A DNA stretch of 64,000 nucleotides from an uncultured Candidatus Rokubacteria bacterium (GTDB taxonomy: Bacteria; Methylomirabilota; Methylomirabilia; Rokubacteriales; CSP1-6). The position numbers are program-made. Shown here piece after piece: positions 6,001 to 9,000 of the stretch. The stretch lies in assembly GCA_963789955.1 (NCBI GenBank), contig CAWBMV010000006.1, forward strand, positions 1 through 64,000. The letters run 5' to 3'. The first letter of the stretch is position 1, and each line of letters opens with the position of its first letter.

Positions 6001-9000
6001 CACTTCAGCCTGTGGGACGCGGCGGGCCGCCGATCCCGCATGTACGACCCGCGAGGGCCGCTACGGCGTGAGCGCGCTCGGCTATCACTTCATCGCGGGC
6101 GTGCTCGAGCACCTGCCGGCGCTGCTCGCGCTCACGTGTCCGAGCGTGAACTCGTACCGCCGCCTGCAGCCGCACTTCTGGAGCTCCGCCTACACGGCGT
6201 GGGGACCGGACAATCGCGAGGCGGCGGTGCGCGTGCCCTCGACGTTTCCCTCCGACCGCGCCGGCTCGACCAACGCCGAGCTCAAGGCGTCGGACTCGTC
6301 GTCGAATCCCTACCTCGGCGCTGGGCGGACTGCTCGCGGCCGGGCTCGACGGCGTCACGCGCAAGCTCGAGCCGGGCGAGCCCGTGCTCGTCGACCCGGG
6401 CGACCTACTCCGAGAGCGAGCGGCAGAAGCGCGGGATCCAGCGGTATCCGACCACGCTTGCGCGCGGCGCTCGACCAGCTGGAGGCCGACGCCGTGCTCA
6501 TGCGGGCCCTCGGCCCGATGCTGGCCCGCGCGTTCCTGGCCGTGAAGCGCTCGGAGGCCGAGGCGTTCGGCAAGGAGAGCGCGGACTTCGAGACGAAGCA
6601 TCACTTCTGGAAGTTCTGAGCTGGACCTCGAGCGCCGTCCCCATCCTCGACCAGCACTGCCACGCGCTCCTGCGCGACGGGACCGTCACCGACGCCGCCG
6701 TCTACGCGCGGTTCTTCACCGAGAGCGACGATCCGACGATGCACGCGCGCCACGCCCCGAAGACCATCTTCTACCGGTGGGCCATCAGGGAGCTCGCGGC
6801 GTTCCTGGGCTGCGCGCCGACGACCGAGGCCGTGCTCGCCGCGCGCGGCCGGCACGTCCGCTGACGCGCTGGCGCGGCGTCTGCTCGGCGAGGCGAACAT
6901 CGCCGTGCTGCTCGTCGATCACGGCTATCGCACCGACGCGACGTTGCCGCCGTCGGAGCTGGCGGCGCGGCTGCCGTGTCGCGTCTTGCCGCTCCTGCGC
7001 CTGGAGACGCTGGCGCAGGAGCTGATCGTCCGCCACGACACGTTCGACGCCGTGCTCGACGCCTACGTCGGCGACCGTCGAGCGCGCGCGGGCGGACGGC
7101 TACGTCGGCCTCAAGAGCATCGTCGCGTACCGCACCGGGCTCGCGGTGCAGCCGACGTCGCGCGCGCGATGCCGCCGCCGCGTTCGGCCCCGTGAAGGAG
7201 CGCGCGCGGCGCGACGGCCGGGTGCGTCTCGCCGACAAGCCACTCAACGACTACCTGCTCCTGCGCGCGCTCGAGATCGCCGAGCGGCAGGCGATGCCCG
7301 TGCAGTTCCACACCGGCTTCGGTGACGCCGATCTCGATCTTCGCGAGGCGAATCCGCTGCACCTGCGCCCGCTGCTCGAGAGCGGCCGCTACGCGAACGT
7401 GCCCTTCGTGCTCCTGCACGCGAGCTATCCCTACGTGCGCGAGCTCGGCTACCTGGCGGCCATGTACCCCAACGTCTGGGCCGACGTGGGCCTCGCCATC
7501 CCGCATCTCGCCGCGGAGATCCCGGCGATGCTGCGCCAGCTGCTGGGGCTCGCGCCGACGAGCAAGGTGGTCTACTCGAGCGACGCCTCGCAGATCCCCG
7601 AGCTCTTCTGGCTGGCCGCGCGCTGGGGGCGGCGCGGGCTCGGCACGGTGCTGGACGAGCTGATCGCCCTCGGCGCGCTCGACCCTGACGACGCGCTCGC
7701 GGTGGCGCGGCGGGTGCTCGGGGGAAACGCCGCCGCGATCTATGGGCTACCCTGGCGGTAGAACGAATGTCGGCTCTCATGCTGGCGGATTCGTCATGAA
7801 GCCGCTATCCTCATCGTCGTGGCACTAGATTTCCCGGGCCCCCGCGCCATGGAGGATTCCTAATGAAGATGACGATCGAGCCGGTGTCCGCGTTCAGCAG
7901 TCTCGACGTGCTGGTCGCCATGGACGAAGGCCTGTTCGGCGCCGAGGGACTCGATCTCCGCATGGCGTCGCGAGAGTCCCGCGACATCCGATCCACGACA
8001 GAAGGGACGTTGTCGAGCCCGGTGACGAATCAGGGACGGCTTCACGAACGCGGCGACGCCACGATGTTCCAGGGGTGAGAGTGCGGCAATAACCGCCGGG
8101 TGGCGGAAAGCCGGGTTGGTGCGCTTCAGATCGGTCGCCGGTCGATGATCGTCTGCGCGGCCCTCGTGGTTCCTCCCGACTCGAATGTCTACGTGCCTCA
8201 GGAGCTGGCACACCGGAAGGTGGGACTGGATTACGGCAATGGCACCGCCTACGCCGGGCTCCAGATGCTCGAAGGCGCCGTTCCACGGGACGCGATTTCG
8301 ACGTGCGCCGCCGTCATCCATCCAGGCGAGCGATTTGCGGCGATGCTGCGCGGCGAGTTCGACGCAACGGTTTTGCAAGAGCCATGGATCACCGTGGCCG
8401 AGAAGGCCGGCTGTCGTCTCGTCTCGACGACGTTCTTCCACGGGACATGGGTCGCCAGCCCCGACCTGGATCCCGCGCTCTACGCCGCGTTCCTCCGGGG
8501 CGTGACCCAGGCCGTTCGTCGCATCAAGGCCGACAAGCGTCGGTACGTGACGTACTTCAAGGAAGGTTGGGCCGCTGGTGACCCCGCGGTCCAGGCGCTG
8601 ACAGCCGACGACTTCAACCTGGGGCGCATCCAGCTCAGGGAGCCGACCCCGATTCCCGAAGACGAAGCGCGCTGGGCGTGGGACTGGATGGCGAGCTGGG
8701 GCGTGCTCCACGGCACGTTCGATGCCGCCAGCCAGATCAATCGCAAGGTCGAGCGGGAGGCGCACGAGCTCGCAGCGCTATCGGCCTGAGGGGAACGCGA
8801 CGTGCAGCGTGACACCCCGACCCTCGTTGCGAGTCGCCCAGATCTTCCCGCCGTGGGCCTCCACGATCGAGCGGCTGATGGCCAGCCCCATCCCGAGCCC
8901 CTGGGGCTTGCTGGTCACGAAATGCTCGAAGATGCGCTCGAGCTCTGATGCCTCGACTCCGATGCCGCTGTCTTGAATGGCAACGGCGATCTGGCCGACG

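Follow-up and report, generated by a model that had tools for sequence, protein, structure and literature searches.

A well-supported, uncatalogued selenoprotein family with a predicted type II binding-protein fold, most likely a cytoplasmic enzyme

Introduction

Selenocysteine (Sec) in a binding-protein fold is known from the SAO system, whose ABC substrate-binding proteins SaoX (NF040735) and SaoB (NF040727) are encoded by anaerobes in an operon of nine genes. The lipoprotein SaoX, whose Sec occupies position 192, resembles the structures 4NMY and 2X26, and SaoB carries a CU motif (bioRxiv 10.1101/2022.07.06.499078, accessible passages). Binding proteins with related structures include SsuA and TauA (TIGR01728, TIGR01729; 3e4r, 2x26, 6ssy); in TauA, the main-chain amides of Gly79 and Thr132 bind the sulfonate (accessible text of PMC6906117). 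The fold also houses enzymes. The desulfinase DszB (2de2, 2de3) is a cytoplasmic enzyme with a catalytic Cys (accessible text of PMC6100217), and Thi5, MqnA, MqnD and 4,5-dihydroxyphthalate decarboxylase are leaderless catalytic Venus-flytrap proteins, none of which is listed as a selenoprotein family in Table 1 of the 2026 inventory (PMC13188914). DnpB, a cofactor-free nitrite-eliminating enzyme of 288 aa, has homologs whose annotation is in every case that of a nitrate ABC binding protein (bioRxiv 10.1101/749879, accessible passages).

In a 64,000-nucleotide stretch of a Candidatus Rokubacteria contig (the window), an initial annotation had proposed a new selenoprotein family of this fold. 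As judged from sequence comparison the uncatalogued family is real and well supported, and a cytoplasmic enzyme is its most likely function. The fold itself is no novelty, as SaoX already places Sec in it, at another site and in a lipoprotein. The absence from the 119 families of the inventory could be verified in the whole of Table 1, where the binding-protein entries SaoB, SaoX and BtuF differ in motif and none contains U-E-C-G (PMC13188914). No description of the family was found in the literature searched, which covered sources outside subscription journals and the accessible passages on BSepDB and deep-Sep.

SaoX falls into the same, 4NMY/2X26-like structural group as the window protein, which differs from the SAO proteins, as far as the accessible passages describe them, by having no leader, no operon and Sec at residue 72 in the motif U-E-C-G. 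Neither a signal or lipoprotein peptide nor the nine-gene SAO operon was found here, and the SaoX and SaoB models gave no match over cut-off. Of 50 family members, three gave a weak match to the SaoX HMM (best E 8.5e-5), and the 7863-8789 locus is not among the 11 sub-threshold SaoX matches in the genome.

Gene structure and reading frame

The features of the locus are as follows.

7863..8789, + strand: coding sequence of a predicted 308-aa selenoprotein with SsuA/TauA/NMT1-type (type II binding-protein) fold and without signal peptide (frame, search and model data)
7851..7856, + strand: Shine-Dalgarno-like GGAGGA, with the ATG 6 nt further on (sequence)
8076..8078, + strand: in-frame TGA, codon 72, probable Sec, aligned with the invariant Cys of the family and with TauA Gly79 (comparison, profile alignment)
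8079..8099, + strand: codons 73-79, E-C-G-N-N-R-R, in which C74 completes a U-x-C motif (alignment)
8093..8106, + strand: core of a putative bSECIS-type hairpin, CCGCC-GGGU-GGCGG (fold, conservation)
about 8084-8087 paired with 8110-8113, + strand: weaker, variable lower stem (fold)
8154..8156, + strand: Cys98, adjoining the hinge position of TauA Glu106 (alignment)
8241..8243, + strand: Gly127, near-invariant in the family, aligned with TauA Thr132 (alignment)

The interval 7863-8789(+) comprises 308 codons with a single internal TGA, codon 72, in the context FQG-U-ECGNNRR. Standard ORF calling divides it into 71 aa and 229 aa; re-reading of the frame confirmed that the two calls (g01287 and g01288) form one gene, as had been proposed. 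The frame closes 21 codons 5' of the start, and these codons encode no hydrophobic leader. GC3 amounts to 0.83 upstream and 0.81 downstream of the TGA, in line with the similarly high values noted before. The previously reported paralog on another contig (C21:29123-30028, minus strand) was also recovered, with 69% identity to the window gene and a TGA at the same codon; the GC3 filter of a genome-wide read-through scan drops the window gene and keeps this paralog. No promoter or terminator consensus was found at 7600-9000. Three RNA runs yielded contigs over parts of the gene, which are not counted as expression because contigs can show neither strand nor level and DNA may be present.

Conservation of the TGA codon

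When 183 genomes of the order were searched, 40 of them gave matches, in 61 rows. Fifty loci were fetched, covering 51 of these rows; the remaining 10 are fragments, three of them also with one TGA. Near-full-length close copies number 33 (64-100% identity; 32 of the 183 genomes, 13 genera), and each has one internal stop, which is always TGA and always in the same column. The earlier count of seven orthologs in 7 of 60 genomes is far exceeded by these 33 genes in 32 genomes, and the retention of the TGA itself stands. Seventeen more distant loci of the same order (25-48% identity) all have Cys in this column. Purifying selection, estimated against 11 close orthologs, is acting on both sides of the TGA (dN/dS 0.106 before, 0.12 after).

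Across the phylum, matches occur in one taxonomic family alone (38 of 158 genomes), and the window query at 1e-30 retrieved no Sec form from 92 genomes of 12 other families. No copies were found in viral_contigs with the window protein, and phage records searched with a Cys form returned two weak TauA matches only. An independent metagenome scan found at least 120 loci. The 80 retrieved from it comprise 76 distinct contexts at 62-96% identity, and 9 of these 80 copies have an early stop 3' of the TGA. An independent Cys-to-Sec change within the C-E-W-G subfamily was also considered and rejected, one pattern for TGA in this Cys-type context giving 0 matches in metagenome contigs.

Public protein databases contain the 3' part of the gene. 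The best 120 matches all begin beyond the TGA, at V80 (66), M95 (37), residue 85 (16) or residue 119 (1), and close fragments bear the name Methylomirabilota, which agrees with the lineage given in the initial annotation. Public calls had been described as stopping at residue 71 or starting at M95; late starts are indeed the rule, but most lie at V80.

The downstream hairpin

In bacteria, a bSECIS is expected to place its loop 16-37 nt past the UGA, with G in the first two loop positions, a stem of at least 4 bp and a stability of -7.5 kcal/mol or lower (accessible text of PMC13188914). The hairpin in the window has a GGGU loop at 19 nt, a 5-bp stem and -8.3 kcal/mol. The bSECIS-like character assigned to it earlier holds, and the distance of 17 nt is corrected: counted from the last base of the TGA, the stem begins at 14 nt and the loop at 19 nt. 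The same rule is passed by 241 of the 1737 true TGA stops of the genome (14%), and the fold z-scores (-1.0 to +1.2) are not significant, so that the hairpin alone is weak evidence; its stability, at chance level, was set aside as an argument of its own.

The evidence for the hairpin is instead the freeze of silent sites in the compared genes. Over codons 73-82, pS is 0.069 in all pairs (pN 0.011), against 0.475 and 0.488 to either side, and codons 72-82 rank first among 118 alignment windows for silent-site freeze (0.973 against a mean of 0.737). The core hairpin is unchanged in 33/33 genes and in 78 of the 80 metagenome loci fetched (of at least 120), and altered in two. At the free third positions of R78 and R79, these 80 loci have CGC in 80 and CGG in 78; at codons 80 and 81, which lie outside the search pattern, GTG occurs in 78/80 and GCG in 80/80. 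Covariation is not possible because the stem does not vary. Invariance of all 33 nt after the TGA, as claimed before, proved to be a near-freeze: codons 73 and 77-81 are identical in 33/33 genes, and codons 74-76 vary silently in eight cases.

Selenocysteine machinery and read-through

The presence of tRNA-Sec, SelA, SelB and SelD in the window genome was reproduced, the three proteins scoring over their cut-offs. SelB occurs in 30 of the 32 genomes with a Sec gene; SelA and SelD were found in the remaining two. The machinery is a necessary condition only, because its background is high: SelB is found in 152 of 183 genomes of the order, a tally that takes in two unpublished genomes (G149 and G008), whose sequences support none of the claims made here. 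Among 126 rows for the window genome, some 30 further candidates for read-through, with Sec motifs of a familiar type, were picked by eye.

Sec is almost certainly inserted at codon 72. The read-through proposed by the initial annotation is upheld by the TGA in all 33 genes, by Cys in the homologs and by selection on both sides. The opposite reading, very improbable, is that no Sec is made and that the family shares a nonsense mutation, is split into two genes with a restart at GTG80, or reads UGA as Trp or Cys. It could draw on the near-invariance of GTG80, a possible start codon, on the frequency of such hairpins at true stops, and on the fact that Sec insertion is deduced from sequence and not from peptides. 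A split, however, would drop C/U72, E73, G75 and R79, the most conserved residues, and codons 73-77 change silently only; purifying selection, moreover, acts on either side. Recoding is countered by the use of UGA as an ordinary stop, which ends 1737 long ORFs of the genome and 12 of 32 family genes, and by tRNA-Sec being the only tRNA with a TCA anticodon called; homologs have Cys at the site, not Trp. The lack of metagenome matches for TGA in a Cys-type context also argues against a reading without Sec, as does the in-register antisense frame, which is interrupted by stops in 15/33 genes.

Predicted fold and position of Sec72

The predicted model (pLDDT 96.1) belongs to the type II binding-protein fold, reproducing the SsuA/NMT1-like assignment made before. 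Residue 72 closes strand 68-72 and is followed by helix 73-81. SsuA is the best structural match (Z 23.9, rmsd 2.8 A, 266 residues), followed by CA3427, NrtA (Z 22.5), the CmpC regulatory domain (Z 22.4) and TauA (Z 21.7). Enzymes come lower: DszB and Thi5 at Z 18.1, MqnD at 16.8, MqnA at 15.2 and 4,5-dihydroxyphthalate decarboxylase at 13.6. A single-sequence PDB search with the window protein returned chance matches only. As noted previously, no Pfam or NCBIfam model scores over its cut-off (TIGR01729 13.8 bits against 304; Pfam NMT1_2 17.3 against 24.7), and the only matches across the family alignment are weak ones to four sulfonate-type models.

A profile alignment (probability 99.8, 14% identity, 11-sequence template) puts U72 on SsuA Gly84, equivalent to TauA Gly79, and G127 on TauA Thr132, in a register that may be off by one residue. 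Sec72 thus aligns with the anion pocket, at the position of TauA Gly79. Identity to SsuA and TauA is 12-15%, far under cut-offs; their anion-site positions map to residues 72 and 127, and the pocket Gly is replaced by Cys or Sec. An export signal and a cognate permease/ATPase, the traits of SsuA and TauA, were not found with the Sec genes. In a crude test, no uncharged hydrophobic leader was detected in 33/33 Sec genes, which agrees with the earlier claim of a missing signal peptide, nor in 27/35 Cys representatives; five true binding proteins used as controls score 1.3-2.5. The Sec gene has no lipobox.

Among the enzymes, DszB (15% identity) has its catalytic Cys27 near the N-terminus, where chain residue 20 corresponds to model residue 1, whereas the window protein has no Cys before residue 72. 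The window family resembles DnpB in length (281-315 against 288 aa) and in annotation as ABC binding proteins (bioRxiv 10.1101/749879, accessible passages). Thi5, MqnA, MqnD and 4,5-dihydroxyphthalate decarboxylase are 10-12% identical to the window protein, share with it the missing leader and, if the proposal below is right, catalysis. Thi5 HMP-P synthases carry a PLP-binding Lys and a substrate His; the Thi5 profile match spans residues 12-44 only.

The Cys family and the origin of the Sec clade

A profile search (E up to 1e-10) revealed 834 cluster representatives of a wider family; they come from bacteria and haloarchaea, and each carries a transporter-subunit annotation. Among the best 150 of these, 80 span the site and 79 of them have Cys there, and a further homolog set shows Cys in 80/80. 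Together with the 17 distant loci, this bears out the Cys/Sec pairing proposed earlier. W74, G75, R79 and G127 are conserved at 94-97% in 35 full-length representatives. Searching the ESM Atlas with a Cys form gave NMT1-labelled or unnamed clusters only. In a quick tree of 75 rows, the 12 Sec rows form one branch (SH-aLRT 100) with a long stem, nested in Cys forms, which is consistent with a single origin of the Sec clade. Fixed differences from the 10 closest Cys paralogs include W74C, Y77N, Y98C, H129A and E196W. A full Cys paralog is retained in 8 of the 32 genomes with a Sec gene, which suggests that the Sec clade took a new role and did not merely replace Cys.

These fixed residues bear on two further functions. 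A thiol/selenol oxidoreductase is unlikely; Sec72 would reduce a bound sulfoxide, thiosulfonate, persulfide or quinone, Cys74 or Cys98 would resolve the intermediate and thioredoxin-like proteins would recycle the enzyme. U-x-C is fixed in 33/33 Sec genes, the genome's TGA read-through candidates include many of Trx/Prx/AhpD type, one Cys form has organosulfur genes around it, together with GST and LLM genes, and catalogued selenoproteins are mostly thought to be redox enzymes (accessible text of PMC13188914). However, Cys forms have Trp at position 74 in 34/35 representatives, and just 2 of 90 close Cys forms carry C-E-C. The ancestral reaction therefore does without a resolving Cys at this position, and C74 falls within the stretch constrained by the hairpin.

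Rather unlikely, too, is a non-catalytic selenoprotein, a cytoplasmic carrier or sensor of a ligand, metal or metalloid with U72, C74 and C98 as ligands, by analogy with the CmpC regulatory binding domain or with SaoB and SaoX, whose pockets are lined by Cys. The top folds are binding proteins, the cytoplasmic CmpC domain among them; C74 and C98 occur in all 33 Sec forms and are missing from the 10 closest Cys forms, which have Tyr at 98; contexts are very mixed, and three genomes have 3 to 8 family matches each. Against such a role stand the single invariant Cys of the wider family and the Sec loci themselves, near which no recurring partner, regulator or metal-resistance gene was found.

Proposed mechanism

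Where the initial annotation left the function open, the site of Sec and the genes around it indicate a cytoplasmic enzyme of catabolism. On balance we favour, by analogy with enzymes of the fold, a Venus-flytrap selenoenzyme in which Sec72 would serve as nucleophile on a small anionic catabolite. In a first step, strongly supported by sequence, SelB would bind the hairpin, with its loop 19 nt past the UGA, and bring Sec-tRNA to codon 72. The product is predicted to be a two-lobed flytrap with Sec72 opening helix 73-81 at the amide/sulfonate oxygen site of TauA Gly79. The substrate on which the cleft may then close would be a small anion, an aromatic or heteroaromatic catabolite (bearing a carboxylate, sulfinate/sulfonate or nitro group) gripped by the helix-cap amides 72 and 127 and Arg79. 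Attack by the selenolate would give a transient covalent adduct and expel a small leaving group, a type of chemistry as in DszB, DnpB, MqnA and dihydroxyphthalate decarboxylase; DszB, Thi5, MqnA and DnpB are enzymes of this fold with such chemistry (accessible text of PMC9672406, PMC6100217 and bioRxiv 10.1101/749879). The Sec clade would have arisen once from a Cys ancestor, with a rebuilt cleft and a role of its own, the latter suggested by the eight genomes that hold both forms.

Catalysis is suggested by Cys72 as the sole invariant column in a 50-row alignment of 34% mean identity. The best structural matches of the predicted model, non-catalytic binding proteins, and the pairing of U72 with Gly79 at 14% identity, which may be one residue off, count against an enzyme, as do the early stops in 9 of the 80 metagenome copies. 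A proton-donor job, as performed by the Cys of DszB (accessible text of PMC6100217), would poorly suit a selenol, with its pKa of 5.2 (accessible text of PMC13188914).

The family comes from soil metagenomes and belongs neither to the thioredoxin fold nor to the anaerobic pathways, which make up most of the catalogue; databases hide it because the best public matches are all called from 3' of the UGA. Sec here marks the functional residue, and hence the site to mutate, in a Cys family that is widespread and misannotated. The function is open to test because cultured Neorhizobium, Mesorhizobium, Geminicoccaceae and haloarchaea carry Cys members, and genomes with both forms offer a direct test of why Sec is preferred over Cys.

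Genomic neighbourhood

No conserved operon or shared neighbours of the Sec genes were found. Their flanks are mostly catabolic, with LLM monooxygenases, CoA-transferases, amidohydrolases, glyoxalase-fold dioxygenases and UbiD; a Rieske homolog and a decarboxylase occur at 1/113 Sec loci each. Public annotation would make the protein a true substrate-binding subunit of an ABC transporter, in agreement with the fold, and ABC permeases account for 4 of 60 ORFs flanking Sec genes (4/33 genes, the C21 paralog included). This assignment is nevertheless highly improbable. The Sec proteins have neither signal peptide nor lipobox, no transporter adjoins the window gene, and the transporters at C21, L028, Neorhizobium, Geminicoccaceae and Nostoc each have their own binding protein. 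The leaderless state of all 33 Sec genes, the single SsuC/TauC-like permease at 113 Sec loci and the Cys operons whose ABC transporter brings its own binding protein support an enzyme instead.

The closest Cys forms occur in clusters of aromatic catabolism. From 550 genome_contigs loci, 80 were fetched; 10 non-alphaproteobacterial ones were set aside and 70 counted. Within these 70 (from 80 of 550), an extradiol dioxygenase is near 49 loci, a homolog of dihydroxyphthalate decarboxylase, itself an enzyme of this fold, near 45, a Rieske alpha subunit near 40 (35 directly downstream), an FAD monooxygenase near 31 and a TauC-like permease near one. A Rieske, extradiol dioxygenase or decarboxylase homolog lies beside 63/70. 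At least 10 different gene orders are represented among them, and neither a dehydrogenase nor a ferredoxin cluster recurs in three or more of the 80 fetched loci. This proximity to ring-catabolism genes supports a catabolic role. The genomes are kin, yet gene order varies.

The cluster belongs to Cys forms about 45% identical to the window protein, and the neighbours of Sec genes are unconserved, which weakens the enzyme reading for the Sec clade. The clustered forms are 79-92% identical to each other and, being so closely related, are not independent; the substrate of the Sec clade may be unrelated because many cleft positions differ from theirs. A bolder proposal, tentative and doubtful as it stands, would make the protein the first selenoenzyme on a Venus-flytrap scaffold and also the first whose Sec serves a non-redox step of aromatic catabolism, either the elimination of a leaving group or re-aromatisation, with the Cys parents an unrecognised enzyme class. 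If true, the Cys family would fill a gap in a six-gene cluster that has no dehydrogenase, by providing the step that follows the Rieske oxygenase. The dnpB gene follows that of an SDR hydride transferase (bioRxiv 10.1101/749879, accessible passages), and no such recurring neighbour was seen at the Sec or Cys loci examined.

More distant Cys genes, carried on plasmids in cultured Neorhizobium, Geminicoccaceae and Nostoc, head an operon in which an ABC transporter with its own binding protein follows; no Paraburkholderia record was among the plasmid matches. In haloarchaea, a C-K-W-E variant is followed by two more proteins that share the fold and likewise have no leader. The contexts of other paralogs are unrelated, and the Nostoc plasmid copy is split by an IS.

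Surroundings of the selenoprotein gene

5132-7761 (+): presumed glutamine-synthetase-like gene, then an amidohydrolase_2 gene
7863-8789 (+): putative selenoprotein gene
7860-8765 (-): antisense ORF of 301 codons, overlapping the selenoprotein gene

The first gene of the upstream pair, which we take from its motifs to be glutamine-synthetase-like, and its amidohydrolase_2 neighbor are each broken into frameshifted pieces. The pair stops 101 nt upstream of the selenoprotein gene and is not kept next to the orthologs of the latter. The antisense ORF is probably a high-GC shadow, because stops interrupt its frame in 15 of the 33 orthologs.

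Variation and depth around the TGA

Two metagenome copies (L230 and L249) retain the TGA and carry CGT GTT at codons 79-80, which alters the bSECIS-type hairpin and abolishes the near-invariant GTG at codon 80. In run X16, contig depth reached 136-164 over window positions 8052-8123 compared to less than 25 in the rest of the gene, a jump that probably reflects a near-invariant stretch common to many relatives.

Relatives with cysteine in place of selenocysteine

Two soil Xanthobacteraceae loci (L070:443-7814 and L112:1129-7870) harbor a putative six-gene aromatic catabolic cluster that combines an FAD monooxygenase, a dihydroxyphthalate-decarboxylase homolog and an extradiol dioxygenase with the Cys-type gene and both Rieske subunits, alpha and beta (best PDB matches 9o71 and 7yls); no dehydrogenase or ferredoxin was seen in it. 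On haloarchaeal plasmids (L138:7950-10805 and L139:7950-10800), three genes in tandem encode leaderless proteins that carry a binding-protein annotation; the first of the three has C-K-W-E. The trio adjoins a cupin and a VOC gene, and no permease is among the genes listed around it. Two Cys-type proteins (P0386 and P0395) carry C-E-C-G, with the second cysteine of the Sec clade, and a Cys-type copy in another genome (L044, G034:C262) has a TGA at codon 144 and is apparently a broken gene.

Other selenoprotein candidates in the genome

Among 126 entries from a genome-wide scan, about 30 genes on many contigs were picked by eye as candidates for TGA read-through because their motifs are familiar ones, and the genome looks selenoprotein-rich. 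Labels were assigned by motif, partly after a published family table (PMC13188914), not by HMM.

Candidates by motif
UGSC-type: eight, e.g. C3:53486 and C6:147642
FdhA-like: two, C22:541858 and C22:21546
GrdB-like: two
AhpD/CMD-like: five
Trx/Prx/DsbA-like: about eleven
MoeB: C34:39641
Rhodanese: C21:8084

The SelD gene (C6:164410) has its own in-frame TGA (context C-A-G-U) and a strong hairpin; its reading frame shifts shortly downstream, probably through an assembly error.
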